DNA of 64,000 nucleotides, from NCBI RefSeq assembly GCF_013076305.1, contig NW_027019317.1, forward strand, positions 14,431,651-14,495,650, read 5' to 3'. This document shows, one piece after another, positions 20,537 through 42,673 of the stretch. The notes beneath the pieces are model-generated. The model was given only the letters and a program-made list of their open reading frames with translations, was not told where the DNA came from and searched no databases. Position 1 is the stretch's first letter. Each line of letters opens with the position of its first letter. The translations under genes were made by a program, and so were the position numbers. The stretch is from Rhopilema esculentum. Its lineage: Eukaryota.

Positions 20537-20650
20537 CTATGGTGACTCCAGAGCACCAATCAGTCCTTGTGCAGTATTGAACAAGTTGATGGGCGATTCG
20601 CCATCAGTAATAAGTGTTGACTTTAAACCCAAAGACTGCAACAATTTCAC
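20537..20650 (-). CDS. MVP: Major vault protein terminal coding exon (stop codon TAG at 20537-20539 on minus strand)
   Basis: [37 protein letters not shown] matches MVP ([32 protein letters not shown]...). The acceptor is tcttttttAG|. The 15 exons sum to 2547 nt, 849 codons including the stop, with all intron phases consistent. Confidence 0.85.
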
Positions 20651-20878
20651 CTAAAAAAGATTTACCAAAATATGATTGGTTGCCTGTGCAATAATTCTGT
20701 TAGAAATATTTGAAAAGTCGTTGTAAAGCTGACAACTACCTTTAAATAAAGGAACAATTTCCTGATCTTAGAAATAAAATATTACTTTTATTACTTTTAT
20801 ACCAGACCATACCATATCTGTGTAATACAATACCAGAGAACACAAAAGGTGCTTGATTTTGACAGAAAAAAGGCATAC

Positions 20879-21067
20879 CTGCATCTCTGGACCTGCTGTT
20901 GCAATGGCCTGGATGGTATTTGCCCCAATGGAGTCAACCATTTCCTTGAACTTGGCGCTATCGATCTCTGCCATTTCACTTGCCTTCTTGATTTCAAGCT
21001 CGTTCTGCTCCTTCACATAATGCGTCTCCGCTTCACGGGCTTTTGTCAGCCTGCCGAGTTCTGAGTC
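20879..21067 (-). CDS. MVP: Major vault protein exon 14
   Basis: DSELGRLTKAREAETHYVKEQNELEIKKASEMAEIDSAKFKEMVDSIGANTIQAIATAGPEMQ matches MVP (...[27 protein letters not shown]). The acceptor is ttttactgtAG| and the donor is CAG|GTATGC. Confidence 0.85.
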
Positions 21068-21258
21068 CTACAGTAAAATACAAAACTAAAGCTCAGGTGA
21101 TTGTGTACAATTACATTAAAATATACAGCATGATCAGTACTTGGGCATCAAACTAATTTCAGGGAATACATTTTCAATTTAGAAATAAAGATTACAACAA
21201 AAACTGCATGAACTTTGTAACAAGAAAAAGAAGTATAAAATTTCACAAAGGAACAAAC

Positions 21259-21502
21259 CGCTTCAATCGATGCAGCTTGGGCTTTCAGTCTAGCTTGCTG
21301 CACAGCAGCCTCGCCTTCGATTCTCGAAGCTTCAGCTCGAGATTGCGCCTCTGCCTTCGCCTGCCCAGTGGACTCAACAGCAGCGCTCTGGGCTTGCAGC
21401 TCGAGTAGTTCTCTGCGTGATTTTTCAGCTTCAGCCTCATCTGAGATCTTCTGGCGTTCAAGTCTCCCTTTTGCTTCTTGTTCAAGCCGGTCAGCTTCAT
21501 GT
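21259..21502 (-). CDS. MVP: Major vault protein exon 13 (coiled-coil cap-helix region)
   Basis: (R)[81 protein letters not shown] matches MVP ([81 protein letters not shown]). The acceptor is gttgttgttAG| and the donor is |GTTTGT. Confidence 0.9.
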
Positions 21503-21791
21503 CTAACAACAACATTTTAACAAAATCGAATTGATAAAAAAACCAATCAAAACGCTATGCACGTGTCACATGTGGACAAGTCATTACTATTTGCCTGGAA
21601 AATATGGAAAATAAAACCGAAACGAGCTTACATTAACTTCTTAAGGGAGTGACTCTTCGTGCTTCTTAAGCTTCACAAAAGTTGTATCGTGATTTTATTG
21701 TTTCTGTCAAACTTGTTCATGAAACGAAAAACACAATGACGACAACAGCAACAGCAGCAACAATGGCAGAAACAAAACGATTGCAACTGAC

Positions 21792-22003
21792 CTTGCAGCA
21801 GCCTCTTGTGAGGCAGTAGTGATCTCGATTGCAAGCTGAACTGATTTCTGCAAAGCGTCTCGGGTGCGTTGGTCTACAGGCTCAACCGACTGAATGTCAA
21901 CACTCGTGATGTTGAGGTTGTTGGCAGGGAAGGTGAATTTGTCACGAACCTTCATCTTGTCATCAAAGCCGAACACAGAAGAGCGGATGATTTTGGCAGA
22001 GTT
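21792..22003 (-). CDS. MVP: Major vault protein exon 12
   Basis: [70 protein letters not shown] matches MVP (NSARIIRTAVFGFE...[38 protein letters not shown]). The acceptor is tcaatcaacAG| and the donor is AG|GTCAGT. Confidence 0.9.
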
Positions 22004-22239
22004 CTGTTGATTGAAATAGGAAGACCTTCATTAATTCATAAATTGGTGAATAAAACTCAAGGGTTTACAATAACAGATTCCAGGAAGTGGGTGATTTGGA
22101 GGGGAAAATTTGTTGGAAGAAGATAGCAACAAGGTAGGGCCATGAAAACAACAATAAGGTCACAAGCATGTGACTGATACACTAAATAGGCATATGAAAC
22201 ACAAAGTGCTTTCACCTTAAGGCCAAGCCCTCCTCTCTT

Positions 22240-24105
22240 TTAGACAATAAAAGAGACGAGCATAAGAAACGAGCAAACGGGGATAGCAAGATAGATGAGC
22301 AAAAGAGAAAATCAAAAGAGATGAACAAAAGAGATGAACAAAAGAGATGAGCAAAAGAGATGAGCAAACAAGAAAAGAAAAAGAGATGAAAAAAACAGAT
22401 GAGCAAACAAGATGAACAAATGAGATGAGCAAAAGAGATGAGAAAAAGAGATAAGCAAAAGAGATAAGCAAAAGAGATTAACGAAAGAGATGAACAAACA
22501 AGATGAGCAAACGAGATGAGCAAAAGAGATGAGAAAAAGAGATAAGCAAAAGAGATAAGCAAAAGAGATTAACGAAAGAGATGAACAAACAAGATGAGCA
22601 AACGAGATGAGCAAAAGAGATGAGAAAAAGAGATAAGCAAAAGAGATAAGCAAAAGAGATTAACGAAAGAGATGAACAAACAAGATGAGCAAACGAGATG
22701 AGCAAAAGAGATGAGAAAAAGAGATAAGCAAAAGAGATAAGCAAAAGAGATTAACGAAAGAGATGAACAAACAAGATGAGCAAACGAGATGAGCAAACGA
22801 GATGAGCAAAAGAGATGAACAAAACAGATCAACAAAAGAGATGAGCAAACAAGAAAAAGAAACGAGATGAGCAAACAAGAAAAACTAAAGAGACGAGTAA
22901 ACAAGAAAAGCAAAAGAGATGAGCAAACAAGAAAAACTAAAGCGATGAACAAAAAAGATAAACAAAAGAGATGAGAAAAAGAAATGAGCAGAAGAGATGA
23001 GCAAACAAGATGAGCAAAAGAGATGAACAAGACAGATGAGCAAAATATAAGCAAAAGTGATGAGGAAAAGTGATGAGCAAAAAAGATGAGCAAAAGAGAT
23101 AAGCAAAAGGGATGAGCAAAAGAGACGAGCAAACAAGAAAAGCAAAAGAAATGAACAAAAGAGATGAGCAAAAATATAAGCAAAAGTGATGAGAAAAAGT
23201 GATGAGCAAAAAAGATAAGCAAAAGGGATGAGCAAAAGAGATCAGCAAAAGTGATAAGCAAAAGTGATGAGAAAAATTGATGAGCAAAAAAGATGAGCAA
23301 AAAAGATGAGCAAAAGAGATAAGCAAAAGGGATGAGCAAAAGAGATGGAAAAAACAGATAAGGAAAGAGAAAAGCAAAAGAGATGAGCAAACAAGAAAAA
23401 CTAAAGAGATGAGCAAAAAAGATAAGCAAAAGAGCTGAGCAAAAGAGACGAGCAAACAAGAAAAGCAAAAGAGACGAACAAGACAGATGAGCAAAAATAT
23501 AAGCAAAAGTGATAAGCAAAAGTGATGAGAAAAAGTAATGAGCAATAAAGATAAGCAAAAGAGAAAAACAAAAGGGATGAGCAAGAGAGAGGAGCAAAAG
23601 GGATGAGCAAGAGATGGAAAAAACAGATGAGCAAAAGAGATAAGGAAAAGAAATGAGCAAACAAGAAAAGCAAACGAGATAAGTAAAGGGATGAGCAAGA
23701 GAGAGGAGCAAAAAAGATGAGCAAAAGAGATGAGCAAACAAGAAGAGCAAAAGAGACGAACAAGACAGATGAGCAAAAATATAAGCAAAAGTGATAAGCA
23801 AAAGTGATAAGAAAAAGTAATGAGCAATAAAGATGAGCAAAAGAGATAAGCAAAAGGGATGAGCAAGAGAGAGGAGCAAAAGGGATGAGCAAGAGATGGA
23901 AAAAACAGATGAGCAAAAGAGATAAGGAAAAGAAATGAGCAAACAAGAAAAGCAAACGAGATAAGTAAAGGGATGAGCAAGAGAGAGGAGCAAAAAGATG
24001 AGCAAAAGAGAGGAGCAAAAGATGAGGAAATGGTATGGTCAAAAAAGATGGACAAAAAAGATCGGCAAAAAAATGAGCAATCCATATGAGCAAACAAAGC
24101 ACATA
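22240..24105. repeat. About 1.9-kb purine-rich minisatellite (10-12-bp units, consensus about AAGAGATGAGC / AAACAAGATGAGC) in MVP intron 11
   Basis: There are hundreds of imperfect tandem copies, seen directly in the sequence. Six-frame ORFs of up to 478 aa across it are repeat artefacts ([11 protein letters not shown]...). Confidence 0.95.
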
Positions 24106-24118
24106 AATAAGCACTTGC

Positions 24119-24260
24119 CTTGTGGAAGTCGTCAAATTTGACCCCGGCAACAGCACCTCTCACTCTCGATGCAATTGCTTTACAGAGATCACCAACAAAA
24201 TCTGGCACAGAGAACAACTTAGCTTTGTCTTCGTCACTCTTTGGATCAACAAAGAAGTTC
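24119..24260 (-). CDS. MVP: Major vault protein exon 11 (followed by a GC-AG intron)
   Basis: (W)[47 protein letters not shown] matches MVP ([48 protein letters not shown]). The acceptor is ccttgcAG|. The only in-phase donor is AAG|GCAAGT, which is the non-canonical GC donor consensus. Confidence 0.8.
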
Positions 24261-24534
24261 CTGCAAGGCAAGCATAAGCTCAACATTTAAGTCTGGGTGC
24301 AAAAAGCCTCAAAGCAAAAAAAACTAAAGTATTGTAATTGACAGAAAGTCTCAAGGCTGGGGCACATGTATCATTTGCATTGGCACATAGGTATCGTAAA
24401 AACCAGATGTAACTCTAAATTTCAATCTAAAATTTTCTTTCAGCTAAATAATATGAATGAAAGAAATAAAAACCAAATGCGTTGATTAATATCGACTAGA
24501 AATGTAAAAATGAATAGCAAACATATAGACTCAC

Positions 24535-24732
24535 CAATTGTATGAAAGCTGAAGCGACAGTCTTGCGTGATCTGCCGTTTCCACAACAACAATATCAGTA
24601 CAGAAGTCTGGGCCGAGGAGGAGACAAAGGGCTTTTATGACATTTGGTCTCTTGGGCTTGCCCCCAGACAGACTTAACAGAGTGAATTGCTCATCAGGTC
24701 CGAGCATTACAAGGTCTGGTCCAAACACAACC
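24535..24732 (-). CDS. MVP: Major vault protein exon 10
   Basis: (R)[65 protein letters not shown](W) matches MVP ([67 protein letters not shown]). The acceptor is cgtttttcAG| and the donor is TG|GTGAGT. About 8.4 kb of intron separates this exon from exon 9. Confidence 0.9.
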
Positions 24733-25259
24733 CTGAAAAACGACAATTCATAATTGTCATCCTCTGAGAATTTATTGCTATATGTTTGGCATGCAAAAAC
24801 TACTTTGAAGGAAAGACAACAACAGGATTCTTACGACTTATATGATTGATACTGGAAACAGAAATTTGACATGGTAAGAGTGTACAGATTTCTATAAGAA
24901 AAAAGGTAAATTATCAGTCGCTTTAGCTGTGAAAAGCAACGAAATGTAAATTCTGCTTTTGCAACTTTTAAGGTTGAAAGATTTACTAGCTATAGAAAAC
25001 ATTTCATCTTAACATTTTAATATACTTTAACATAAAATAAAAATTACTGTCTACAGGCCTGCTCGATGCCGCATAGGCAGAGACGCTATTTGGTGTATAG
25101 AACAGGACGGGAATTGCCGATACATTCAGGAACATGACAACAAAATGTAATAACAACCATAGAGAAACTAGTTCCAACAATTGCCTGGAAACCACCAGAA
25201 CATGTGCTACCACTAAAACGCTTATTGACAAAATTGCATTTACCAAGCCTGCACTGATA

Positions 25260-26830
25260 CGGTCTACTTAAGTATTCCCTTCAGATTTCAGTGACCATTA
25301 TTTAATGGGCTGTATTCGTAAATGCAACCATCAGAAGTTTCCACCAAAGGAAATTAAATGGCGTGATTACATCCGATAGAACGTTTCAAAAATAAACTGC
25401 AAGCTCTCCACTGCAGACTGGTCTGACATTCACGAAACGAACGATGTTAATAAGGCTTGGAAGGTTTTTCACCAGATAAGACGTAGTATCTTTGTGAGCA
25501 CGCACCAATAATTGTAAAGCGAGTGAAATCCAAACCAGCTCCATGGCTTACCCCAGAGATTAAGGCTGCTATGAATGACCGAGACAGGCAAACCTGCAAC
25601 AAAAACCTGCAACACCTGATGGAGTTTATGGAACCTTAAAAAAACTGCGTAGAAAGGAAGCAACCGAACTCATCACCTATGTCATATTATAAACATGTCG
25701 ATCAACACTGGCGTGGTCCCTTCAGCATGAAAAATGGCCAGAATCATTCTTATTCATAAATCAGGACCTACATCAGACTTTGAAAATGACTGTCCTATCT
25801 CAGTTTTGCCCTCAGTGTCGAAAATTATAAGAGAAAATTGTTCATGAGCAGCTTATAACTTTCTTAGAAGAGAAAAATTTGACATATAGTCACCAGTTTG
25901 GTTTCCGAAATAAAATGTGTACTGAACATGCCGTAACTTTATTGCTTGATTCTATACGGCAGACGGTTGATAAAGGAAATATGGTTGGTGCCTGCTTCGT
26001 TGATTTATCTAAGGCATTCGACACTATCAGCCATTCAAATTTGTTAACCAAGCTACCTGGATATGGTATCCACGGTCGAGAACTTGCCTGGTTCACCGAT
26101 TACTTATTTCACCACAAAGCTATGGTACAGTACAAGCAAGCGCGCTCTGACTTATTTAACATTGACTCGGGAGTGCCACAATAGTCAATCCTAGGCCCCT
26201 AACTATTTTGCTACTTTTTAATGATCTAGTCGATGTGGTCAAGCTCAGGTTCTCAAATATGCAGACGACACCGTTGTTTACATTAGTGGTAGAAATGTGA
26301 AGGAAATGTCGAACTTGCTGTCAATCGATTTATCTTCTATTTCCAAATGGTTTGAAGAAAATGAACTCCTTATGAATTTTTAAACAAGGTAAGACTGAGG
26401 CTTTACTATTTGGAACTTCCAAAAAGACCACGCAGAACATCGAGGACATTGAGATTTATGCAAAGAAGTCAAAGATCTTTGTAACGTAAGAATACAAATA
26501 TCTTGGAGTGCCTGTTAATAGCTCCCTTAACATGACACCATTCTTTGACAAATGTTACAAGAAAACGTCGTCACGTCACGTCACTTGCGAAACTTGATGG
26601 ATGTTGATGTTGCCAAGTCGATCTACCAAACCATGGTACTACCAGCGTTTACATACTGCGGATTACACCTACTTTGTCTTACAGCTACACAGGAAGGTAA
26701 ACTGGTCTCTCTACACAAAAGAGCAGAGCGAATAGTAAAATCCAAGGAAATTCGCTCTGTCAGCAGTGCAAACCAGAAGCGAGCCTGCCAATTTGTAAAT
26801 CTTGCCTCGATGGAGATGTTATAGAGCCTT
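25260..26830 (+). mobile_element. Degenerate LINE ORF2 fragment (pre-RT linker plus RT) inside the 8.4-kb MVP intron 9
   Basis: The frames read DWSDIHETNDVNKAWKVF, then KSKPAPWLTPEIKAAMNDRDR, then FGFRNKMCTEHAVTLLLDSIRQTVDKGNMVGACFVDLSKAFDTISH...GIHGRELAWFTDYL, then a stop-ridden ...SGVPQ*SILGP*LF... continuation. Confidence 0.75.
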
Positions 26831-27539: not shown

Positions 27540-28850
27540 ATACAGTCAAAAAGGCTCTTGTGGTAGAACTGAGGATAGGTGAAGCAAGTTTATGGTCTGG
27601 TAGTAAAACGGTTCTATGCTAGATAGAAAACAGGAATGAGTGGATTTTGTAAAACACAGAGTGAATGAGACATTGAAGGTGTCAAAGAAGGAAAATTGAG
27701 GATGTTGTAAGTGTCGGGAGAATTCAGCAGATGTAGGGTCAAGAGGAATAGAAGCTGAAGGATTGAAGGAACATAAGTTGTTGTGGAAGGAACCAGTTGG
27801 ATTCTGGGTCCTAGGGAGGGATAGCCAACAAAATAAAGGGAAATTGAGACAAAGGAAAGTAAAGAGAGATGAAATCGTCAGTTGTCATGCAAATAAATGT
27901 TGTTGACACACCAAGCGTAGAAAATGTGATTGACATAGGTCTCTAATTTGAACAAGTTGCATAAAGCAACTGCTAAGGTTTATTCGTAACTTGAAGGCAG
28001 GAAAGAAAGAGAATTTCCGAAAAACAAGGGGAGTTAAGAGAAGAAGAATGCTAGGAGCAGAAAGAGTGTGATTGTGTCTGCTCAAGAAGGTTTGAAGAAG
28101 GAGAGTGATCTTTGAGAAATTAGAAAGGGAGCTTCAGCTAGTAAACCACAAAGGAGTGCTTTAATCTATTATTATTATGTTACGTATAATCGTGCTGTCA
28201 TATTTTTGTTAAGTTTGAAGATTTTTTAATTTCAAGCATTTTTCCATCCGAAATCAAAAACGTTAAAAGGGTATTATTGGCGATTTTTGGGTCTGCAAGA
28301 GATTACAAAGGGGTGATATTTAAGAGCTTGCCCATTTAGGAGCTTGCCCATTGCCGATTTGCCAGACTTTCGTGTAAGACAAGCACCGGCACTTTCTAAT
28401 GCAAAAACGGACTTTGCTGGACCGCTTTTTGTAAAGGAAAAGAGGGGGCACTTTAAGTAAGTGCTTCATTACAGCGTTTTCCTGCTGTGTGACGTCAGCA
28501 GTACATCTGGAGCTGGTTCAAGTTATGTCAGATTCAAAATTGGTTGGCGGTTATTATAGCAAAGGTTCCCTGGATAGGAGGGTTTAATGAGAGAATGGTT
28601 GGAACTGCGAAAATATGTTTGGGGAAGGAGCTAGGCAGCGCATGAATTATGTATTATGAACAAAAAACCATTCTGATTGAGGTTGAGAACACCATTAACT
28701 CCCAACCTATTACATATGAATACGATGAAGCGGGAGGAGGGGCATTGAAACCAGCACATTCCACAAAGGATTCGAGAGTTCAAGCGAAGACCTTCAAGAG
28801 TAAAAGCAAGACAACACTTGTAGGCATTTTCTATCGTTATCTACTTTAAG
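27540..28850 (+). mobile_element. BEL/Pao-type LTR-retrotransposon pol fragment (RNase H/integrase region), pseudogenised, inside MVP intron 9
   Basis: LWSGSKTVLC*IENRNEW ... ENSADVGSRGIEAEGLKEHKLLWKEPVGF matches the BEL RNaseH-integrase junction (SDSxxALxWI...NPADxxSRG...LWWxGPxWL). QAPALSNAKTDFAGPLFVKEKRG matches the integrase zinc/core start (VGVDFAGP). LIEVENTINSQPITY matches the integrase C-terminal (EAVLNSRPLT). Stops and frameshifts are present. Confidence 0.6.
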
Positions 28851-29664: not shown

Positions 29665-30960
29665 TCAGTGGCCAGTGGCGTAGCGTCCATGTATGCTAAG
29701 CTCGCGGCGCAAGCGTAAAAAATTCTAAACAATTTCTAAAATTCTTGCAACACTTCTACGGGTAATAAACACATTGTAGTGTTGAAGTCAATGCAAGAAA
29801 TTTTCCGCAATGAACGGCTATTCTTTCTGGTCATATGCAGCATGCAGTGAACTCCAGCGCAAACATACCAATTAATTATTTTTCCAAGTAAACAGATCGC
29901 CAAAAATTGTGAAATTCGAAAAATCTGAAAAACTGAAGCCCCTCCACATCACTCTTTTTGCCTGCCTAAAATAGGATAAACATGCGATGCTCCAGTGCAG
30001 CTTCAATGCAGCTCGAGAGAAGCTTCTGAGAGCGGTGAGAATTTTCCGGACTGGAGCTTGCGGTCAGCCTTAGCGCAAGCATTCCCAAATATTCAATAAT
30101 ACACAACATTTTTCTGCCTATAAGCTGCTTTTTGCAAATAATTTTTGCGTGATACCTCATTTCAAATTTAATTATTTTTTATTCTTTACTTTGTCACTGT
30201 TAAAAAGAGAAAAAATTTCATCAAAGCTGGGTCAAAGTCTATTTGTCATGATCTGCATTCCGTATTTCAAGTCAAAAGGCTTGCCAGTATAGTCAGAATT
30301 TACGGACCAGGGCATGCGGTAGACCTGAGCGGAAGCCTTGCCAAATAGTTGATGATTTGCAAGGAACAACCTTCTGAAACCATTACACATGAAAGTATCT
30401 TCAATTCTAACAACTCTCACAGCTCTTTATTGTCATCTTTGTTAACTATGATGTTAAAAATGAGCAGAAACTTTTGCTCCTGTTCGCTCTGGCTCTGCTC
30501 TGCAGAGAGCTCCTCCTTACGGGAATCCCCAGATGCATTAGAACATATAATAATTTTTACATTAGGTGGGCATTAGGTGGTGCCTTTTCTTGACGAATAT
30601 GAATAGGAATAAGATATTTTGCGAAACAGTTTTAGCACTAGGAGTTATTCTGAAAATTTTTGCAAAACAACTAAGCTTTTTTCAAGAACTTTTCGCATGG
30701 GTTATAATTTTTCCCTTGGTCCACTTCTTTTTTCAACGTGCTTCAGAGCCCCTGATGCAGAGAATAGACACCTTGATTGATTAGAGTTAGAGTACAAACA
30801 ATTTGTTATTTTCAAAATCAAAATTTATTATCACGATTATCATTAGTTACCACTTGTATTTTTAAGGAGCTGAAATAACGATTACATTCATTCAACATAG
30901 CCGTATATTTTATGCTACCGCATGCCTAAGCTCTGCGCTCACGCTTCGCCACTGTCAGTG
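29665..30960. mobile_element. Possible hAT-like non-autonomous element with CAGTGGCG termini (boundaries uncertain)
   Basis: CAGTGGCCAGTGGCGTAGCG at 29665 faces CGCTTCGCCACTGTCAGTGGCAG at about 30940-30965 in inverted orientation. The direct subterminal motif GGTCGCGCGACTGCT/GGTCGCGCGACTACT lies outside each end. No clean TSD was found. Confidence 0.3.
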
Positions 30961-31205
30961 GCAGTGCTTCCTCATTCCACTGGCGGTCGCGCGACTACTT
31001 TTGGGAGTTGAATAGATGTTAATAGCTCAATTGGGCCAGCCGGTTGCTCGATTTAGTGTCCATATCGATACCGTAGACCTATCTAAGTCGAGAGGCGTCC
31101 ATTAACACATCTCAGGCAGTTATGTAACATTGAAATGTGCATAAAATACATTTTGGTTAGCGCGAAGGCCAGCATAAAAATTCTGTAGTTTAACGTGAAC
31201 AAACC

Positions 31206-31553
31206 ATGGAAGTTGTTAAAATACTTATAACATCACTTTTGGGGTTTATTGCTAAAACCTGCGATTCTGCTATCCTGAAACCTGAAAACTTGAAACCTAC
31301 TAAAACCTGCGGTTCTGCTATCGAGCAGCATTTACTGGAAAACCAAGATTGTGCAAAAAACTATAAGGACGACATGTTTCGGATTATTGGTAAAGCCCGA
31401 TCGTTGTTCCATCTATCTATCTACATAAGCACGCCCAAAAGTTTTGGAACCTATCAACATAAGCATGAAAAGACCGCTATTGTGTACACAAAAGGGGTTC
31501 GCTTTCACCTTAGGACTAAATTGGTAACATTCTTTATAGGCAAGCGGCACTGA
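31206..31553 (+). other. Repetitive TE-like ORF with the SAIEQHLLENQDCAKNY motif, copy 1
   Basis: The ORF reads ...KTCGSAIEQHLLENQDCAKNYKDDMFRIIGKARSLFHLSIYIS.... A second, truncated copy lies at 50588-50700 on the minus strand (IDSAIGQHLLDNQDCAKFY) with about 75% DNA identity over the motif. Confidence 0.4.
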
Positions 31554-33162
31554 TTGGTCAACCTCAACAGTCATGTGCTCGTGTTTCTGATTGGCCTATT
31601 TCGATCCACAACTGGGTATATATATTTATTAGCGTAGAGTTTTCGATCTATGTTCTGATGTATTAAACTCTGAAGAGTGTCAGACGAAAAGCTTTAGTTT
31701 TCTCAAATTTTTGCTTTTTTCAAAGCCATTTTCAAATTTTGTACCACCAAAAGATTTTTTGTCTGGTTTACGTTAAATGCCGCATTACCCTTTTTTGTTT
31801 TCTTTGGCGCTTATCCAAAAATTCAACTTCACGCTCTGCTACACTGAGAAAAGTATCTGGTTTAAACGGACCAATTGGCTTTTTTTCAGAGAAAAAAATT
31901 TGTTATTATGGGGGCTTTTTTGCGAAGGAAAAAGGAACCTTCTCATTTCCTTTCCCCCGTCCTTCATCCTTTGACTCTCTGAGGCTCTGGCACCCAGGGT
32001 AGGGGGCAACATACTTCAAAAGTTCCTCAAGACGATCAGCGCTCATCCTAAAATGTTGTAAGAAGTATTCCTTGTCGAAAAGTTTCATCTCTCAAAAACC
32101 TTTCATCAAAAGGTTGGAATGCGATTACCACTCATGCATTAGGTTGGCATAGTTTGTGTAACGTCATGTACGTTAGCTGACTATGATCTAGTGCCGACCG
32201 GGCACTGACAGCGATCACGTGACCAAATCTCGATTCGCGAAAGTGGAAACCCGCCTTAAGAACCAATTTAAGAGACTAAACTGCCTCTTTTCCTTAATAA
32301 TATCCAGTACATAAGAACCTATTCGGCTGACGCGTAAAATCTTAGGTTATTATTCGCGAATAGTTACTATAATCAATCGAGTTTGAACGTGACAATCTAA
32401 TGGGCGAATGGAAACGTCAGTAGGGCCGCTTTTGTTACGTCAGTATCCGATTAAGCAATCGGTTTAATTCTGTTAAAGCGGATAAAAAGAAGAGATTACA
32501 AAACATGAACAAGTTATTAAGACAGTTGCCAAGCAATAAATCTAAGCCAATTTGTAGTTATTTGAGGCGACATTCCTCTCACCAATAATATTGATAAACA
32601 GGGAAAGGTATTAAAGGCAGTCTGTCCCCTATTGTGCTCAACTTTATTTTCACGGGAGAGAAATTCATGCACCGTTGAGCTTGATCGATAAACGATTTAA
32701 ACCAATCAGAGACACATGGATTCCAGAGCTTTTGAATCAAATGGCTGTGTTCCCGTTGAAGTGAAGCTATGGCTAGAAAAAGTTTGTTCCCTGTTTGGTT
32801 CCCTGTAGAAAAAGTTTGGTTTTTGCGACAGATATGTCAACAGCGAAAGGAAATGCCTCTGTTATCATCAGTCAATTTCAGTAATGAAATCTTATTGCCA
32901 TTCCCGATAGCTTTTTGCTCGCAGTTTCAAATGTCGTCCACTACAGTAACTAGGCCAGCCAAATCCGTTGAGGCGGGGAGATATATTGTTCATATTGGCC
33001 AATCATTGAGGGGACAGACTGCCTTTAAATCTGCCGCAGCCAGAGCCTTACCAGTGAGCTTTTTTCAACCTCTTTATTCTTGAACAGGGGGGTACGCCGT
33101 GGATTTCAAGCTGGAGGGGCCGTAATAAACAATGTACAAAAAGTGAAATCGTTGATACATAC

Positions 33163-33551
33163 CTTGCTTTCTTTTCTTTGTAATCATAAATCTGAACTGC
33201 TGCATTATGGGGCACTCTGAACGTAACTACTTTTGTTTTATCTCGTGCCTTCCCTGTATCACTGCCTCCACCCCTTTCACTACGCCCCGAGAGGGGGTCC
33301 TTTCCTTGGGTTATCAAGTCTTCTACAACAGGAGGTAGTGTCTTCTCCCATAATTCCTCGTCCTGGGTTAACATGTAGGTGTTGCCTATTTCTGCCCGAA
33401 CCTTGCCAGTCCGTATGTCACGCACATATACCCCCTCGTTGGCATCGAGTGGAATAGCCGTTCTTCTGCTAACGACTTCTACTTCGACGGGGGGCACATA
33501 CTCGCAAGGACCTCTGATCATCCACTTATCACCAGGCTTGCGTTTAATCTT
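33163..33551 (-). CDS. MVP: Major vault protein exon 9 (largest coding exon)
   Basis: [70 protein letters not shown]...[22 protein letters not shown](R) matches MVP ([63 protein letters not shown]...[19 protein letters not shown]). The acceptor is tatccgatAG| and the donor is AG|GTATGT. Confidence 0.9.
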
Positions 33552-33774
33552 CTATCGGATAAGACCAAACAACTTTAAAAATTAAACAATTCTAGATATG
33601 CCAAAGCATAATACATCTAAACCTCAATGTCGGTGAACTTGTAAAACTTTCATCACTGCTACCTTTCACTGCACTTCACTACACTGTCAGTAAAAATCTA
33701 TTTTCACATAAACAAAATCGACAGCCGAAAAAGATGGCCATAGTTTTCCATTTCAACAAGTTGATTTTTTTTGT

Positions 33775-34975
33775 ATTCGACAGGGCCGAAAGGGCAGGAA
33801 GGGCAGGAAGGGCAGGAAGGGCAGGAAGGGCAAGGGCAAAGGGCAGGAAGGGCAGGAAGGGCAAAAAGGGCAGGAAGGGCAAAAAGGGCAGGAAGGGCAA
33901 AAAGGGCAGGAAGGGAAGGGCAAAAAGGGCAGGAAGGGCAAAAAGGGCAGGAAGGGCAAAAAGGGCAGGAAGGGCAAAAAGGGCAGGAAGGGCAAAGAGG
34001 GCAGGAAGAGCAAAAAGGGCAGGAAGAGCAAAAAGGGCAGGAAGAGCAAAAAGGGCAGGAAGGGCGAAAAGGGCAGGAAGGGCAAAAAGGGCAGGAAGGG
34101 CAAAAAGGGCAAAGAGGGCAGGAAGGGCAAAGAGGGCAGGAAGGGGAGAATGCAAAAAGGGGAGAATGTAGAAAAAGCAGAATGTAGAAAGGGCAGAATG
34201 CAAAAAGGGGAGAATGCAAAAAGGGCAGGAAGGGCAAAAAGGGCAGGAAGGGCAAAAAGGGCAGGAAGGGCAAAGAGGGCAGGAAGGGCAAAGAGGGCAG
34301 GAAGGGCAAAAAGGGCAGGAAGGGCGAAAAGGGCAGGAAGGGCAAAGAGGGCAGGAAGGGCAAAGAGGGCAGGAAGGGCAGAAAGGGCAGGAAGGGCGAA
34401 AAGGGCAGGAAGGGCAAAGAGGGCAGGAAGGGGAGAATGCAAAAAGGGGAGAATGTAGAAAAAACAGAATGTAGAAAGGGCAGAATGCAAAAAGGGGAGA
34501 ATGCAAAAAGGGGAGAATGCAAAAAGGGGAGAATGCAAAAAGGGAAGAATATAGAAAAGGCAGAATGTAGAAAAAGCAGAATGTAGAAAAAGCAGAATGT
34601 AAAAAAAGCAGAATGTAGAAAGAGCAGAATGTAGAAAGGGCAGAATATAGAAAAAGCAGAATGTAGAAAAAGCAGAATGTAGAAAAGGTGGAATGTAGAA
34701 AGGGCAGAATGTAGAAAGGGCAGAATATAGAAAAAGCAGAATGTAGAAAGGGCAGAATGTAGAAAGGGCAGAATGTAGAAAGGGCAGAATGTAGAAAAAG
34801 CAGAATGTAGAAAAAGCAGAATGTAGAAAAAGCAGAATGTAGAAAAAGCAGAATGTAGAAAAGGTGGAATGTAGAAAGGGCGGAATGTAGAAAGGGTAGA
34901 ATGTAGAAAGGGCGGAATGTAGAAAGGGCGGAATGTAGAAAGGATGGAATATAAAGAGGACCGGACGTAGAAAGG
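33775..34975. repeat. About 1.2-kb compound minisatellite in MVP intron 8: an 18-bp GGGCAGGAAGGGCAAAAA array followed by a 16-bp CAGAATGTAGAAARRG array
   Basis: This is seen directly in the sequence. Two arrays with different unit sequences sit side by side, with gggagaatgcaaaaag transition units between them. The long ORFs across it (up to 490 aa) are repeat artefacts. Confidence 0.95.
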
Positions 34976-35630
34976 GCAGAAAGGACAGTAAGAATAGAAG
35001 GAATAATCTTTGTGGTAACTTTGTTGTTTGCCAAGACGAGGGGGAAATTTTTCCCTAGATTAGCCACGTTTAAAAGAAACAGCGATAGGCAATAACTAAT
35101 GATGTGATATGGTGTTATTCCCCAGGAGGCCTTGCAAAAACCAAATTGCATAATTAAAATCTATGATTAGAAAAAATTTACAACGTTGAATGAATGAAAA
35201 ACTATAAGATGCTTTTACGTAATCATGGAGTTTAAGAAAGAGGGGCTAGTCTACCGTAATGTTGTAGATTACTGCAAACTTTTGGTTCATGAAATGAAAA
35301 TGTTTTTTCGCCAATTTTGGGAAAAAGGAATGTTAGGGGATTTGCAATGTGATTATGACTTTATAAAACCTTAAAGAACATGGCAAACTTCTTTTGAAGA
35401 TTTAAACACCATGGCTGTTTTAGGTCAGAGTTATTCCATCTGCTAGTATTCAATCTTCTGAACTTTGTAAATATTTCACAAAAAAGCCGCCATCTTTGAT
35501 AAAGCAAGCATTAAAGAAATACAACAATAGCTATTCTGGGCAAACTTGGGCTAACAATACCGGAAAGACTGCGAATCCTGGCCAACAAAAGAGACAAGGT
35601 GAGACACTTGAAAACTATGTAGATTTTCAC

Positions 35631-35756
35631 CTTGTTCTCCTCCTCGAATTCTTCGATAGCCCGGAGAATAAGTCCGCCATCTTCACCAAGAATATACACA
35701 CTTTGTATTTCATTCTCCAGTCTTTCTCCTGGCCTCAGAAAGAAAGACTTTTCACC
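35631..35756 (-). CDS. MVP: Major vault protein exon 8
   Basis: [42 protein letters not shown] matches MVP ([41 protein letters not shown]). The acceptor is ttcatttaAG| and the donor is |GTGAAA. Confidence 0.85.
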
Positions 35757-38661
35757 CTTAAATGAAAAAGTTGAAAACAATACATCAATTCACAATGCAC
35801 AAATATAACCAAGGGCGCCATGGCTACAGCTCTCCACTAGCGCAACAAATTTGTCGAAATAATTCAGAAAGTTTGCTACGTTGCCATAAATTTTAACAAA
35901 AATATAAATTGCCTTGGTCCGAGCAAGAAATTAGCCTCCAATGCACCCCTGGCGCTCTGATGATGAAGAATCAGACAATGTATGTAGTGTTACTCAAGGG
36001 CAAAGTGTTGTCTGACAAAACATACAGTGGTTTGTTATCATCGCATTAAATAGATGGTTTGTTACCATCTGCGTGAAATTCTGCTTGAAATTCAAGGTAC
36101 TAACGTAAAACCGACCTGTTCTACAAATCAAAGTGAGCCCCACCCTATCCGTGCAAAATCAAGACTGTACAATCGGCATCGTTATAGTCGTTAGTACGAA
36201 TGCCTTACCCATATAACAAAAAATAGACTTTTGAGATTTTACAAGGGGGAATACGGCTAGTCATTAGTCAGGTGATAAAGGACTTTGTCAGTCACTAGTC
36301 AAGGTTTTTGGTGCAAGTTAGTCAAAATTTCTTTGTAGCACAATTTCTTTTAGTTTTAACGTGGTTTCATAGTTGTATATACCAAAAGATTCTTAGGAGT
36401 TTTTTACTGAATAGACCAATTCGACTTACGGCCTCGTTTTGAAAAAAACTTCAAAAATTGTTAACCTCAGATTCGGATTAAGAGCAATGATTTAAAGCCT
36501 GATTTACACGAGACGAATTTTTCGCGCGAAGCGAATTTTTCGCCACGAATTTTTCGCCTGCGAATTCTTTGGGAATTCGAAGTTTAATTTCCACTGGCAG
36601 AATTTCTTTTGCGAATTCGCCGCGAATAATGCAAAAGAAAATGGCGTCTGTTCGAAGATTGTTGTTATTAAAAAAAGCGAGCAAAAAAGCAAAGAAAGGG
36701 GTACTTGGTTCGAAAAATTTATTCAGAACGTCTACAGAAGGGGGAGTTTCATCTTTTGGTAAATGACTTACGCTTACATTGTCAGGAATAATTACTTTCG
36801 AATGTCGCCAACTACATATGAGGAGCTTTTAACCTTTTATTGCACCAAAGACGCCTGTTGCTAGAAACGTCCCATTCCATTGTTTATGTTATAGGTGCGG
36901 GATTTTCCCAGCATTGTTTAGGCCTAGTCATAGGATACTCATTCTTCACCCATGTTGTTGTTTGAACCATTGCGTAGTTTTCTGTCGTTTTGCATACTTT
37001 TGATTTAGATATGTTTACATTGCATAGCACCATTCGGCCTAGCCCTTTCTTTCCCATTGGTTCACTAGTTGGGTTCGTGTCAGATGTCTTCAATTGCTGT
37101 TCTGATTGGTTTATTTTAAAAGGCGAAAAAATTCGCAGCGAAAAAGTAGGAATGGTTTCTACTTTTTCGCAGCGAATTATTCGCTGCGAATTTTCTAATG
37201 TCCACTTCTGCGCATATTTTTCGCGCATTCGCAGCGAAAAATTCGCTTCGCACGAAAAAATTCGTCTCGTGTAAATCAGGCTTAAGTCTACTTGGAAATT
37301 TTCATTATGGTATTGCTCACGATATTGATTTTTTGACGACATAAAGATAAAAAGTTTATAAGAGATTTGGCCGTGATTGGCGACTAGGTGGGTAAAGTTT
37401 CACCCGGAATGATTTTTGCGGTCAAATCCTTTGCGATCAAACAAAATGAAAAATTGTATCCAGCCTAAATCTATTGTGATAAAACCAAATCTGAGCTAAA
37501 AAAAGTTGCGTCGCATAATTAAATTTGGAGAAATTTTCAAAAACGTGGCCGTAAGTCGAATTGGTCTATTGTGATATAAAATATTCTGTCACAGGACGTT
37601 TGGAAATTGTTATCATACGTAGCGCAGATTTTACTTTTTGAGGATATTTGACGGCCAAAAGAAAAAGCAATATCATTCAAGAGTGAAAACATAGGGAAAA
37701 CATAAAGAGAAAACATATTGCGCAATGAAAATTGGAAAATCTCTTTCAAAACTCTTCCCTTAAATTACCAGTTAATAAGCAGAAGCTATAGGCCATAACA
37801 ATGACGGCAAACATTTGGGTTCAAACCCCTCCCCCATCTCATCGTCTCGATGAACCCCAATTTGTAAGCGTCTCGATGAACAATAGCCAACACATAGACA
37901 ATATGGGCTAGCTACAACCATTTTGATTGGAAAGCAAATGGATGGTTGATTTCCCTCCTGCTCTTAGTTGTTTTTGGGCAAACACAAGCTCATCTTTGCT
38001 CCTTTTGTGACCTGATGATAATACTTATTTGTCAAGTAGAAATGATTCTCTCTCAGCTCAAGTGCACACAGTCAGAAATTTTGAATATATGAGAATACAT
38101 GTGGCACTCGAGATTATTCACACTATTCAATAAAAGTAAGTCAATAAAAAAACATGGCTTTGGCTTGGCTTTTACAAATAATTAGTCAGTCAGTTGGCAA
38201 AACAGTCTGTTAGTCACCTACTACATCGTCGAAACCCCTTCTACACCCTCACCTTGGGAAGGTCTAATTTAATAACATATAACAGCTCAAAACTGTTAAT
38301 TGCGATAATTCTTCAGAATCTGCAGAAACTATTCCCTTTTGCTTCGTTAGCTATGACAAAAGGAGAGGGTATACCAAAATACAGCCAGTCATGATTTTCA
38401 TGTTGCCTTGCTATAGGTGGACATGAGATTGATCACATGAAGTTGCCTCGATTTGATTCTGAAAACAGGTTTCGTCAAAGGTCAGTTGTAAACAATGGCC
38501 TTCGAGATCACATTAGATCACATGGAACTAAAATCATCACACTGAAAGCTAAGGAAACCTGGCACGGCAGAGGACCTTTTTTACCTTGACAACGTTAGCT
38601 TCAGATAATCACCTGCAACATTTAATATTCTTCTTCACAGTTAGCAAATAGGCTGTTTTAC

Positions 38662-38772
38662 CTTGATGAGCTTCTTCTGTCCCATTTGAGGCTTGCCATC
38701 CTTTCCTACAGGGTCCATGATAACACAGTACTGTCTGTTGTTCAACGTTGTGATCTTGACCACATCAACAAC
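38662..38772 (-). CDS. MVP: Major vault protein exon 7
   Basis: [37 protein letters not shown] matches MVP ([36 protein letters not shown]). The acceptor is attattAG| and the donor is |GTAAAA. Confidence 0.85.
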
Positions 38773-38921
38773 CTAATAATTGGAAAACTGCATTGAGTTT
38801 GAATACCATTTTGGGTCTCACTTTAGTCCTAATATTAAAATAAAAAACCCGAAACATATGGGCTATTCCTTCTTAGCTCCTGCCTTTTAAAAAGATAAAC
38901 ATTTGAAAATTAGGCAAGGAC

Positions 38922-39047
38922 CTCTTCGTAGATGCCAGGTATGTGCGCCTCAGTGTCTTGAAAAGTAATTAACCATTCTTCGCCGTTTTTACGAACATTG
39001 CCACGATCATCTGTGAAGGTTCTTGTGGAGCGCATATGAAGCGCCTT
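38922..39047 (-). CDS. MVP: Major vault protein exon 6
   Basis: [42 protein letters not shown] matches MVP ([42 protein letters not shown]). The acceptor is tgtattctAG|. The donor |GTCCTT is weak, so the exact 3' boundary could shift by a few nt. Confidence 0.75.
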
Positions 39048-39947
39048 CTAGAATACAAAAGAGTAAACTACCATCAGGTTTGACAAACAGCAAGTCTTTG
39101 TTTACAGATAAAGAAAAGTTGACTAAGGCCTAGATTAAAGAAGGAGCCAGTCATCTGACAATCCTCATTATGATAAGCTGACACTGGGAAGACTGAATCC
39201 CGAGGTTGGCACAGCCTAAAACATCAAACTAAATAGGTCATTACATTTTGAAATATTACACGAAGCATTAGAAATTTACGCGGTTTTTTGTTTGAATAAT
39301 GATTACACTGTGTGGTTTAGTTATGGGGTAGTTTCATTTACTACTCAAAAACATGTCATTCTGTTTGTGCACGCCCAGCCTAATTTTAAGAAAGAAAATC
39401 AGAAATGTTTCTCACTTGCTTAATCAAATGAAATTTTGTTCCTCTCATGCGCTTAAGGTATGAAGTAGGTTGGGCACATGATAGGCTCAGTGTTTGATCC
39501 AGGTCTAATAATTTGTGATTGTTGCCTAATATCAATATTGGTTGCAGCTAGGTGTTTGATATAAGAATGAATCATGATATGGAATTTGTTAATCCCACTA
39601 ATGTGAAAGAGCTATTAAAACATGAAATGATGGGCGATTCCATTCTGATACTGGAAGCCAGTTGCAATCAGAATGAATGATGATATGCAATTTCTATATA
39701 GCACTGATATGAAAGTGCTTTCAAAATGTGAAATGATAGCACTGATATGAAAGGATTCACTTCACAACAGTAACATCATATGTAAATTGAGTGATTTTGC
39801 ACATTTATTTCAGCTCAAAATTCACATGAACGTGCAGATATAACCATACACAAATGAATTTTGGAAAATTAATAATGTAAAATTTTTTTTTCTGTATATC
39901 GAAAATACAAAAAATGCTAAAAAAATAATAGGTGATAGAGAAAGTAC

Positions 39948-40070
39948 CTTTTCTGTTAATACTGTAGCCTTGACAATATCAACAACTTCTTCATAGGCAC
40001 CTGGGAGGTATGCGCCCACCTTTTTCACAAGCCATTCCTCACCAGTCACTCGAAAATTGCCATTGCGATC
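39948..40070 (-). CDS. MVP: Major vault protein exon 5
   Basis: [41 protein letters not shown] matches MVP ([41 protein letters not shown]). The acceptor is aatcatttcAG| and the donor is |GTACTT. Confidence 0.85.
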
Positions 40071-40249
40071 CTGAAATGATTTTGCAAAGCAGTTATTTTT
40101 CTATCCATCTACTTTCCCTACTATCTACATTAATCCTGCATCTATCTTTTAAAATGATACTTGCTGGTGGCTGAACACAACTTTGTAAGCTGCTTGACAG
40201 CATTAAGTAAATATGCTTGACAATCATCAAAATTTTAGCTAAATCACAC

Positions 40250-40353
40250 CTTAGTTTCTCCTCTGGCCCTCAATTTCAAGGCCTGGTTTGGCTTTATTAC
40301 TGTGGCTCTGATAGTCTCCAAGACCTCAACCTCTTTTCTTGGAATGTATGTTC
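40250..40353 (-). CDS. MVP: Major vault protein exon 4
   Basis: (G)[34 protein letters not shown] matches MVP ([33 protein letters not shown]). The acceptor is cttcttcctAG| and the donor is |GTGTGA. Confidence 0.85.
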
Positions 40354-41043
40354 CTAGGAAGAAGTTTACATGAAGAAGACTGAAGTTATTTATGAATGCC
40401 AAATAAATGAAAATGACAATGAAGAAAGACATTGCAATACAATTACCTGGAAACAGGTTATAAAAACAATAGCAAAACGGATCTAGTGGCATTATTTTCT
40501 ATACCAATTTTGAATGACAGAGCGTAATTTATATAGCTTACAAAATAACTACCATGAAGCTATTATAAAATTTTCGATCTCTTGACTAAAGAGATCTTCT
40601 TGGCTAAAGAGAGTGGGTGGTTATTGTAAAACTTTATAATTGAGCGTATTGGATAGGGGTTTAAAAACGAGTGAGGGCTAAATAGAGCTTTCAGGGTGCA
40701 TTGGATTTCTATTTATCAAATTGGTAAGGTAACAATTGGCAGGCAAGAGAAGATGGTTCTAGAAAAGACTCTCTTGGCAGTATAGGAAAATCAAACCATT
40801 TGACTAAAAAGACAGTTCACAAAACCCAACATCTTGTTGAAAGGTTAACAAAGAAAATGAGAAAACAAAGTTTGAAACTGATTCTAGATAAGTTAGAATA
40901 GATATTGGATTGCCTCATGTTGTTTTGCTGTTTTCCTACCTTTCCTCATTCATAGTACAAGTGCCTTGTCTGAGGGTGCTGTCAAACCAAGACATTTGAA
41001 TGAAAATAAAAACTGAATGGCAAAGAGATATGGTATTATGTAC

Positions 41044-41224
41044 CTGGTCCTTCGAACAAGTATTCATCTCCAGCCACTTTCTTTTCACCGCTTTGATCCT
41101 CAAAGTCAAGAACAGCCCTCAGACGGAGGGCTGAGTTGGCAGGAACAACTCTAAGAGATGTTGGTGGTTGTTTGAGTTCTTCGCCAGGGTAGAGAGGGAA
41201 AGGGTCTTGGGCAAGACGGACATC
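41044..41224 (-). CDS. MVP: Major vault protein exon 3
   Basis: [19 protein letters not shown]...[12 protein letters not shown](G) matches MVP ([15 protein letters not shown]...VVAGDEWLFEGPG). The acceptor is tttttgttAG| and the donor is |GTACAT; the exon ends in phase 1. Confidence 0.85.
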
Positions 41225-41280
41225 CTAACAAAAAGATCAAATGACTGTTTGGTATATATCATTCAAAGGATAGATTATAG

Positions 41281-41466
41281 CAGTGGTGGCGCCAGGGGAG
41301 GGCTAGAGGGGGCTACAGCCCCTCTGTTGGAAGCATCTAGCCCCCCCCTCCCCCCATCGGAGCAAATTTGACAAAATAACATATGGAAATTGCTTATTTT
41401 AGTCATTTTAGCCCCCCTGTCGGAAGCTCCAACCCCTCTGTCGGAAGATTTCTGGTGGCACCTCTG
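41281..41466. mobile_element. 186-bp hAT-type MITE inside MVP intron 2
   Basis: The TIRs are CAGTGGTGGCGCCAGG and CCAGAGGTGCCACCAG (about 12 of 16 matching, CAG-terminal). The flanking 8-bp TSDs are GATTATAG and GATTATAT, matching at 7 of 8. Internally there are C-rich blocks and the repeated motif ctgtcggaag. Confidence 0.55.
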
Positions 41467-41779
41467 GATTATATAACAGAAATTTTTTTTAAAAAACTGG
41501 GCTTCTGAGTAAACATTAAACTGTACTATTAAATCACTTTTTCTAGTGCTGGTAAAAAATGAAATCAAACACACAGTAAATGGATAAGTGCAGCAAAAGC
41601 CAAAGCAAGTGCTCTAATAAATGGCACAAACACTGCACAAGTATATTCTGATGCTCTTCTCAAAGATGCCTCTCTCATAAGGGCCTTTTTTCTCAGATGA
41701 AAATGGGCCTTCCAGCAAAAATAAATAAAGGCATGAATTTGGTGAAGTACTTTTAAAAAATAGTTAAAGAAAAACTCAC

Positions 41780-41917
41780 AAGATCAGCATGTTTCAATTT
41801 AACCTGGCCGTGCTCATCAAGGATAACTTTGCCAGTTTTGTCCTTCAATACTGGATTTTCAACAATGCAGTAGTGTCTTGGAGGTATGGTTATCATCTTT
41901 TCTGGGCCAAAAACAAC
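41780..41917 (-). CDS. MVP: Major vault protein exon 2
   Basis: VVFGPEKMITIPPRHYCIVENPVLKDKTGKVILDEHGQVKLKHADL matches MVP (VLFAPMRMVTVPPRHYC...VRLRHADL). The acceptor is cgttacAG| and the donor is |GTGAGT; the exon is phase 0 at both ends. Confidence 0.85.
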
Positions 41918-42523
41918 CTGTAACGTAGTTGTAGATTAGTCAGTGAACATTGGAAGCAATGACAACATGATTAATGGAGAAAATTAATGTGATTTTATGT
42001 AGGCCAAAAACTGGCAAAAGTTGAGAAACAGACTAAAAATTTAAAGATTTTTCTGGAAATTTCAGTAATTATAAAATAAAACTTTTTTCAGAATATATAT
42101 ATCAATTCACAAATAGACAGTTGTGTTTATTTGACATTTCAAGTATTTATAATGAAATATACTAATATTGATAACTGTTCATTTACAATTTGGCAATTTC
42201 TTAATTTTTATCATTAAAAACATAAAAGCATCCTTCAAACAACACATAATTACACAGGAAATTATCTGACATGTCCCAAATACTGCAAGTCACATTTATA
42301 GCCACTATGTCAAGTAGCCCTAAACAAACAATTTGTGTGAGTCAGCCTAACCAAGAAAATATAGTATATTTCAATGGGCAGCTAGTTTGATTTTCTCCTT
42401 TCATGCTTCAGAAAATGCACTGTACATTTTTAAAATAACCTTGAAAATAGCAGTTTCTTTTAAGAATGAAATTGTTACTATGCAAACTTGGTCCTACATC
42501 TTCTAAATCAAAACTCCACATAC

Positions 42524-42673
42524 CTTTTCATTGTCTTGCCTGACATAGGTTTTTGGGCCAACTTCAACCCTTGTAACATTACTATTTTGATCAAGCACAT
42601 GGAGATAAAAATAAGGTGCAATGCGGAACAGACTGTCATCTGGTTGTGCACCTTTTGAGTTTCTCTTATCCAT
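42524..42673 (-). CDS. MVP: Major vault protein, coding exon 1 (start codon at 42671-42673 on minus strand)
   Basis: Translation [50 protein letters not shown] matches the MVP N-terminus (human [42 protein letters not shown]). A stop codon lies in frame upstream. The donor AAG|GTATGT follows the exon. Confidence 0.85.

Follow-up and report, generated by a model that had tools for sequence, protein, structure and literature searches.

An intact major vault protein gene on the minus strand

The DNA analyzed here, a 64-kb stretch of the genome of the edible jellyfish Rhopilema esculentum (hereafter, the window), carries on its minus strand a gene for the major vault protein (MVP). Its coding region begins with the A of the ATG at position 42673 and finishes at position 20537, the third base of the TAG stop codon (20539-20537). 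A tblastn search with an MVP query returned 15 colinear blocks, all of them on the minus strand. We resolved the junctions by hand, and they rest on sequence logic, on identity with the RefSeq model and on the conservation of introns across species. The 15 coding exons form a CDS of 2,547 nt for a product of 848 aa, which starts with MDKR...HVLDQNSNV, and the 848 codons are read through without frameshift or internal stop. The intron phases (0, 0, 1, 0, 0, 0, 0, 0, 2, 2, 0, 2, 0 and 0, in order) are mutually consistent. The original prediction had proposed 15 exons with consistent phases and 848 residues between positions 20537 and 42673, leaving the strand unstated, and our independent rebuild agrees with it to the exact coordinate. 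A plus-strand MVP gene was rejected, because no MVP is found among the plus-strand stop-to-stop ORFs and the tblastn blocks lie on the other strand. The motif AATAAA is absent within approximately 250 nt downstream of the stop codon.

Exon 1 (42524-42673, 150 nt) opens with the ATG at 42673-42671, ends at a gtatgt donor and is supported by tblastn, by junction resolution and by an exact match to the RefSeq protein. Tblastn and junction resolution define exons 2 (41780-41917, 138 nt), 3 (41044-41224, 181 nt, ending in phase 1), 4 (40250-40353, 104 nt), 5 (39948-40070, 123 nt), 7 (38662-38772, 111 nt), 8 (35631-35756, 126 nt), 10 (24535-24732, 198 nt, with a gtgagt donor), 12 (21792-22003, 212 nt), 14 (20879-21067, 189 nt) and 15 (20537-20650, 114 nt including the TAG stop). 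For exon 6 (38922-39047, 126 nt) and for exon 11 (24119-24260, 142 nt), which is followed by the only GC-AG intron of the gene, junction resolution is joined by a match to RefSeq. Exon 9 (33163-33551, 389 nt) is assigned through its RefSeq isoform match, and exon 13 (21259-21502, 244 nt), which encodes the coiled coil of the cap helix, through tblastn, junction resolution and structure alignment.

The 848-aa model is identical, letter for letter, to RefSeq XP_065054794.1, annotated as 'major vault protein-like isoform X1' of R. esculentum. This protein is also the top database match (100% identity), followed by MVPs of other cnidarians and of bilaterians at 73-90% identity. An MVP model of the same species is present in EukProt as well (EP00795 P016050). 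The value of the locus as a new reference gene model, which the original prediction had put forward, falls away because a model for R. esculentum already exists.

When the exons are spliced and translated, as had been suggested, a Pfam search of the product detects the tandem vault repeat domains (PF01505, PF17794, PF17795 and PF17796), each exceeding its curated cut-off: Vault (E = 1.1e-66, 221 bits), Vault_2 (E = 1e-39, 135 bits), Vault_3 (E = 9.1e-37, 125 bits) and Vault_4 (E = 1.2e-15, 58 bits). The repeats are followed by MVP_shoulder (PF11978), whose match is also above cut-off and covers residues 523-640, that is, profile positions 1-118 of 118 (E = 5.2e-53). The anticipated colinearity with vertebrate MVP holds over nearly the whole protein, with a single alignment of 1,249 bits between residues 12-843 and residues 4-850 of the solved MVP chain 9z4w_A. 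Residues 745-843 separately match the C-terminal fragment 9z5n_B, and the cap-helix and cap-ring region is colinear with solved MVP. Vertebrate MVP (rat and human; PDB 4V60, 4HL8, 9Z4W and others) has the same domain order of vault repeats, shoulder and cap helix. The jellyfish protein differs from it in its short N-terminus and in the loop around residues 608-615, where approximately 10 residues are missing. Its C-terminal end lies five residues past the conserved C-terminal motif, and it is devoid of the tail of approximately 40 residues that closes human MVP.

Splice junctions and origin of the two isoforms

Thirteen of the 14 introns are of the GT-AG type and one, intron 11, is GC-AG. The donor of intron 11 reads AAG/gcaagt and is the sole canonical junction that returns the RefSeq protein. 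The usual consensus of GC donors is GCAAGT.

Exon 9 is preceded by a tandem NAGNAG acceptor (gaTAG/AAG). A start at 33551 gives isoform X1 with 848 aa, and a start at 33548 gives isoform X2 with 847 aa, which equals XP_065054795.1 residue for residue. The two products differ by one lysine, and the presence of two RefSeq isoforms is therefore explained by the tandem acceptor. Exon 6 has a similar acceptor (tcTAG/AAG), whose first AG is the one chosen in the annotated protein, and its donor, gtcctt, is weak.

Conservation of intron positions in Cnidaria

We compared the intron positions with those of the MVP genes of Nematostella vectensis and Hydra vulgaris, whose proteins are 76-77% identical to jellyfish MVP. 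Thirteen of the 14 introns sit in the same alignment column and have the same phase in Nematostella, and the remaining one is off by a single column in a gapped region. Hydra has lost several introns, and nine of the ten that it has coincide with introns of R. esculentum. Nematostella has two additional introns, within the stretch that corresponds to exon 9 of R. esculentum, and the donor of its intron equivalent to intron 11 is GT rather than GC. The two genes span 10.1 kb in Nematostella and 11.5 kb in Hydra, compared with 22.1 kb in R. esculentum.

Some features of the locus could be expected of a decaying, non-functional MVP pseudogene with a functional paralog elsewhere, namely the repeat-filled introns, the weak donor after exon 6 and the one non-GT donor. 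The rest of the evidence leaves this explanation with a vanishingly small chance of being correct. The reading frame is open over all 848 codons, the intron positions are conserved, and the GC donor is the very consensus of its class. The protein is 73-90% identical to the other animal MVPs listed above and approximately 62% identical to the MVP query across the tblastn blocks, and its domain scores are all far over threshold. Furthermore, the protein cluster with XP_065054794.1 contains only the two isoforms of the present gene. Judged from its sequence, the locus is almost certainly a single-copy, intact, protein-coding MVP gene of this scyphozoan, with introns enlarged by repeats.

Minisatellites in introns 8 and 11

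Introns 7, 8, 9 and 11 together account for 79% of the intron DNA of the gene, whose median intron measures 580 bp. Tandem Repeats Finder identified two minisatellites in them, of 1.83 and 1.20 kb, in agreement with the expectation of two arrays longer than 1 kb each. The array in intron 11 (22249-24080, 1,832 bp) is composed of approximately 142 copies of a 13-bp unit, AAAAGAGATGAGC on the plus strand, and is 83% pyrimidine in the sense of the pre-mRNA. Intron 8 hosts a compound array (33782-34981, 1,200 bp; 86% pyrimidine in the same sense), in which approximately 37 copies of the 18-bp unit AGGGCAGGAAGGGCAAAA are followed by approximately 35 copies of the 16-bp unit AAGGGCAGAATGTAGA. The 18-bp and 16-bp units have a common AGGGCAG core. 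Long minus-strand frames of 449-493 codons run through the minisatellites, and we rejected them as coding because they are stop-free only owing to the 83-86% pyrimidine content of that strand.

In both arrays the units match one another at 75-89%. Short reads would hardly suffice to assemble 1.2-1.8 kb of such 13-18-bp units, and the length of the arrays, hence part of the 22-kb span of the gene, might in principle be an artifact of assembly. We consider this very unlikely, since the published assembly was built with PacBio long reads (PMC7172023) and the internal divergence and higher-order structure of the arrays do not resemble collapsed identical copies.

Transposable elements within and upstream of the gene

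Intron 9 hosts four elements. The first is a decayed LINE-type retroelement (25101-26821, with approximate outer limits) on the plus strand, antisense to MVP. Its plus-strand ORF fragments at 25831-26380 match the Pfam reverse transcriptase family RVT_1 (E = 2.9e-12), as expected of the LINE reported initially, and the reverse-transcriptase ORF is interrupted by frameshifts.

The second element (28317-28846, plus strand) is a putative retrotransposon integrase remnant with frameshifts and an internal deletion. The fragment has no Pfam match at E <= 0.01 or at E <= 10. It aligns to its best homolog (P0122) with 40% identity over 96% of the fragment length, and this homolog gives matches to rve (20.7 bits) and DUF5641 (22.8 bits), both below cut-off. 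DUF5641 is a domain associated with BEL/Pao elements. Neither a Pao peptidase A17 domain nor LTRs were found for the fragment. The BEL/Pao label of the original prediction is weakly supported, through sub-threshold matches in the homolog, and the remnant is possibly BEL/Pao.

The third element, detected by a scan for terminal inverted repeats (TIRs) with target-site duplications, is a non-autonomous hAT-type element of 1,282 bp (29673-30954). Its TIRs, CAGTGGCGTAGCGT and ACGCTTCGCCACTG, match at 13 of 14 positions and a perfect 8-bp target-site duplication, TCAGTGGC, lies on both sides, as required of the hAT MITE that had been claimed. It contains no long ORF or transposase ORF, and a second copy is absent from the 64-kb window. 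The fourth is a MITE of 410 bp (32615-33024) with 16-nt perfect TIRs, AGGCAGTCTGTCCCCT, and TTAA flanks on both sides.

In intron 7 we found an unclassified composite inverted-repeat element (36410-37570), with outer arms of 50 nt that are 82% identical and a nested element (36495-37283) with 28-nt perfect arms. A hAT identity was rejected for this composite and for the inverted-repeat element at 32611-33028, the two most conspicuous of their kind, as both lack a direct duplication of 8 bp. Other ORFs in the region (31194-31550 on the plus strand, 37399-36887 and 44534-44175 on the minus strand) match no Pfam family.

Upstream of the gene lies a Tc1/mariner-type (Stowaway-like) MITE (43815-44197), with 383 bp between TA duplications. 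Its inverted-repeat arms are perfect over 22 nt, flanking TA included, with TA on both sides, and its outer arm begins 1,140 bp 5' of the MVP ATG, where a mariner-type MITE had been placed at about 1.1 kb. Other copies occur in the window at 11008-11398 (94.6%), 50198-50469 (94-95%) and, partially, 56028-56135.

Repeat load and genome context

The repeat content of the gene has to be seen against that of the genome, of which 29% is repeats and where introns average 987 bp (PMC7172023). Introns that carry repeats are nothing unusual there, and describing the gene as a clean example of a conserved gene colonized by repeats is for this reason overstated. The GC content of the window (approximately 37%) agrees with the published 36.25% (PMC7172023). 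No tRNAs were found in the window, nor any Rfam RNA genes, intronic snoRNAs included, at gathering thresholds. Two permissive Rfam matches, to snoR66 (E = 0.52) and to the histone stem-loop (E = 0.02, with no adjoining histone ORF), were regarded as chance. The Rfam Vault RNA was unmatched in the window in both gathering and permissive modes; its linkage to MVP is not expected.

The intronic minisatellites and transposable elements might not be passive, if the arrays bound splicing regulators and the upstream MITE added promoter activity to MVP. The two arrays share the same strand polarity and are both rich in pyrimidines in the transcript, and the MITE lies 1.14 kb upstream of the ATG. We give this explanation very little weight: there is no sign of conservation, and the MVP genes of Nematostella and Hydra are half as large; the MITE is dispersed and multi-copy, with at least three further copies in the window; and agreement in polarity between two arrays is a one-in-two coincidence. 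It is equally improbable that the pyrimidine-rich minisatellites combine with the GC-AG intron and with the NAGNAG acceptors into a lineage-specific control of splicing or expression acting on the vault gene. The preferred explanation is that introns 7, 8, 9 and 11 owe their size to the two minisatellites and to transposable elements that are decayed or non-autonomous, all of which would be spliced out and are probably neutral passengers.

Significance of the locus

The MVP gene of R. esculentum and its protein are already known from RefSeq, and what is added here (the exon coordinates, the GC-AG intron, the account of the NAGNAG acceptor and the inventory of repeats) is purely descriptive. 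The significance is little, as this is a conserved housekeeping-type gene with a repeat content typical of its genome. From the point of view of method, a eukaryotic gene model of 15 exons was obtained without error from the raw sequence by reading it without tools, GC-AG junction included.

In the jellyfish, a primary transcript of 22.1 kb from the minus strand would be spliced into the 15 coding exons and translated into an MVP in which vault repeat domains at the N-terminus are followed by a shoulder domain and, at the C-terminus, by a cap helix. The protein is presumably expressed, and by homology 78 copies of it are expected to build the shell of a vault ribonucleoprotein particle. MVPs are characterized by this self-assembly and by association with vault RNA, TEP1 and PARP4. 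The locus is of modest descriptive value for the tandem-acceptor origin of the two MVP isoforms, for the conservation of intron positions of the gene in Cnidaria, and for a small catalog of MITEs and minisatellites.

A complete MVP gene on the minus strand

A tblastn search in which a major vault protein (MVP) sequence served solely as a probe returned 15 blocks in colinear order, all on the minus strand, from ~42640 down to ~20555. No MVP-like open frames were found on the plus strand. We read the bases flanking each block once it had been extended over its open frame, set the junctions by hand and then spliced the exons. The coding exons, all on the minus strand, lie at 42673-42524 (exon 1, starting with ATG), 41917-41780, 41224-41044, 40353-40250, 40070-39948, 39047-38922 (exon 6), 38772-38662, 35756-35631, 33551-33163 (exon 9), 24732-24535, 24260-24119, 22003-21792 (exon 12), 21502-21259, 21067-20879 and 20650-20537 (exon 15, ending with the stop codon). 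The spliced coding sequence measures 2,547 nt, or 848 codons. The tblastn blocks and the hand-resolved junctions bear out the original prediction of a complete 15-exon gene with an 848-aa ORF, and its limits were exact: the stop codon ends at 20537 and the ATG begins at 42673.

Thirteen of the 14 introns are GT-AG. Intron 11 is GC-AG (AAG/gcaagt ... caacag/AAC), with the donor at 24117-24118 on the minus strand, and no GT alternative for it preserves the frame; its counterpart in Nematostella vectensis, in contrast, has a GT donor (gtaggg). The GC content of the window (~37%) agrees with the 36.25% published for the R. esculentum genome (PMC7172023).

The 848-aa protein matches the Pfam families Vault, Vault_2, Vault_3, Vault_4 and MVP_shoulder (E 1e-15 to 1e-66). 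Residues 12-843 align in a single piece with residues 4-850 of solved MVP chains (1,249 bits), which is the end-to-end correspondence set beforehand as the test of the model. The top database match is 'major vault protein-like isoform X2 [Rhopilema esculentum]', at 100% identity, followed by scyphozoan and other animal MVPs at 73-90%. Exact-sequence look-up showed that our model is XP_065054794.1 (isoform X1), also present as EukProt EP00795 P016050, with the 847-aa XP_065054795.1 (isoform X2) as its cluster mate, which places the window in the edible jellyfish R. esculentum. Public databases already carry annotations of both the gene and this exact protein, and there is no new reference gene model to contribute, as had been proposed in case the species lacked an annotated MVP.

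A single lysine, located where exons 8 and 9 join, distinguishes the two isoforms, because the acceptor of exon 9 is a tandem TAG/AAG (NAGNAG) site (gaTAG/AAG/ATT, 33548-33553, minus strand). Starting the exon 3 bases later yields isoform X2 exactly, and a pair of this kind is the usual product of such an acceptor. A second TAG/AAG site occurs at exon 6 (39044-39049, minus strand), where the annotated proteins use the upstream AG only.

Repeats within and near the gene

Tandem Repeats Finder confirmed the two intronic minisatellites longer than 1 kb. The first, in intron 11 (22249-24080, 1,832 bp), has ~142 copies of a 13-bp unit, and the second, in intron 8 (33782-34981, 1,200 bp), has 18-bp and then 16-bp units with a common AGGGCAG core. 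Both have the same strand polarity: purines predominate on the plus strand, which accounts for spikes in the skew profile of the window, and the MVP pre-mRNA is 83-86% pyrimidine across them. They are crossed by frames of 430-490 codons that lack stops and would be reported by a naive ORF finder; we rejected these frames as coding, since the pyrimidine composition accounts for the lack of stops. The frame through the 22249-24080 array continues in frame from exon 11.

Intron 9 (8,430 bp) holds plus-strand ORF fragments antisense to MVP. These are a decayed LINE, in agreement with the original prediction, with a reverse-transcriptase match at 25831-26380 on the plus strand (RVT_1, E=2.9e-12). 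A frameshifted putative integrase remnant at 28317-28846 had been called a BEL/Pao fragment. It has no Pfam match of its own, but 96% of its length aligns at 40% identity with a metagenomic protein that has rve and DUF5641 matches, both sub-threshold. As DUF5641 accompanies BEL/Pao elements, the label may be tentatively regarded as plausible. The predicted hAT-type element was recovered by scanning for inverted repeats with target-site duplications: 1,282 bp long (29673-30954), it has TIRs CAGTGGCGTAGCGT (13/14) and a perfect 8-bp duplication TCAGTGGC, and is a structural hAT signature without transposase.

Upstream of the gene, the predicted mariner-type MITE (43815-44197) is flanked by TA on both sides and has 22-nt perfect inverted-repeat arms (43813-43834 and 44178-44199, flanking TA included), the outer arm beginning 1,140 bp from the ATG. 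It belongs to a ~390-bp TA-flanked family of Tc1/mariner type, with at least three further full or partial copies among the four occurrences in 64 kb (11008-11398, 43813-44203, 50198-50469 and 56028-56135; 79-95% identity). This MITE appears to be an abundant element of the R. esculentum genome.

Two further elements were absent from the prediction. A 410-bp MITE (32615-33024) has 16-nt perfect TIRs and TTAA at both flanks; TTAA duplication is a hallmark of piggyBac elements, but their usual TIR begins with CCC and that of this MITE does not. A composite inverted-repeat element in intron 7 (36410-37570; outer arms 50 nt, 82%), with no clear target-site duplication, contains internal 'TTCGC' palindromes and encloses a 789-bp element whose 28-nt arms are perfect. 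Intron 9 also has an open frame of 119 codons (31194-31550, plus strand), with no Pfam match and with a related, 78%-identical stretch at 50562-50659 (minus strand); we take it to resemble the GIY-YIG region of Penelope-like elements.

Flanks of the window

Outside the gene, RVT_1 remnants occur at 12477-13106 (plus), 16957-17793 (minus) and 48992-50126 (plus), with E-values between 3e-11 and 3e-24. At the nucleotide level these remnants resemble neither one another nor the LINE of intron 9, and the window therefore contains several distinct retroelement families. Further tandem arrays lie at 54094-54457 (26-bp unit, ~14 copies, 95% identity), 5151-5490 (25/30-bp), 2972-3106 (18-bp) and 61841-62048 (104-bp doublet). 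Exons of neighboring genes encode a SANBR-type BTB domain (1830-2189, minus; PF11822, E=1.3e-20) and an alpha-carbonic anhydrase (56420-56704, minus; PF00194, E=2.4e-15). The histone 3' stem-loop is matched below threshold at 9993-10046 (minus; 24.3 bits, gathering score 34, E=0.02); this is probably due to chance, as no histone ORF lies upstream of it.

Repeat load and intron conservation

Recognizable repeats add up to ~8.1 kb, which is 42% of the MVP intron DNA (19.6 kb); four introns (2.1, 2.1, 2.9 and 8.4 kb) carry 79% of that DNA. MVP introns have a median length of 580 bp and a mean of 1,399 bp; in the R. esculentum genome the mean intron is 987 bp and repeats make up 29% (PMC7172023). 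The gene had been put forward as a clean example of colonization by repeats, but given this median and the genomic repeat content there is nothing unusual about it, and its layout is ordinary among metazoan genes. No RNA genes were found in or near it. The intronic repeats are most likely without function and would be removed by splicing along with their introns. By homology, the MVP product would form the vault shell; that of rat is described as consisting of 78 MVP chains (PMC3762200). We infer vault assembly, MVP expression and repeat neutrality alike.

MVP is described as an ancient gene, widely conserved in eukaryotes (PMC3762200), and databases contain dozens of MVPs from cnidarians and other invertebrates. 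The comparison drew on Nematostella vectensis, whose MVP gene spans 10.1 kb, and Hydra vulgaris (11.5 kb). Exons at both loci were located with a small, exact mapper for spliced alignment, and all intron positions were then placed on a three-way alignment of the proteins. Of the 14 Rhopilema introns, 13 coincide with a Nematostella intron in both column and phase, whereas the remaining one, intron 8 beside the NAGNAG site, is one column off where the alignment is gapped. Within the region corresponding to Rhopilema exon 9, Nematostella has two additional introns, and nine of the ten Hydra introns match Rhopilema positions. Judged by these shared positions, the structure of the Rhopilema MVP gene is the ancestral cnidarian one, and the gene model is no artefact of forcing an ORF.
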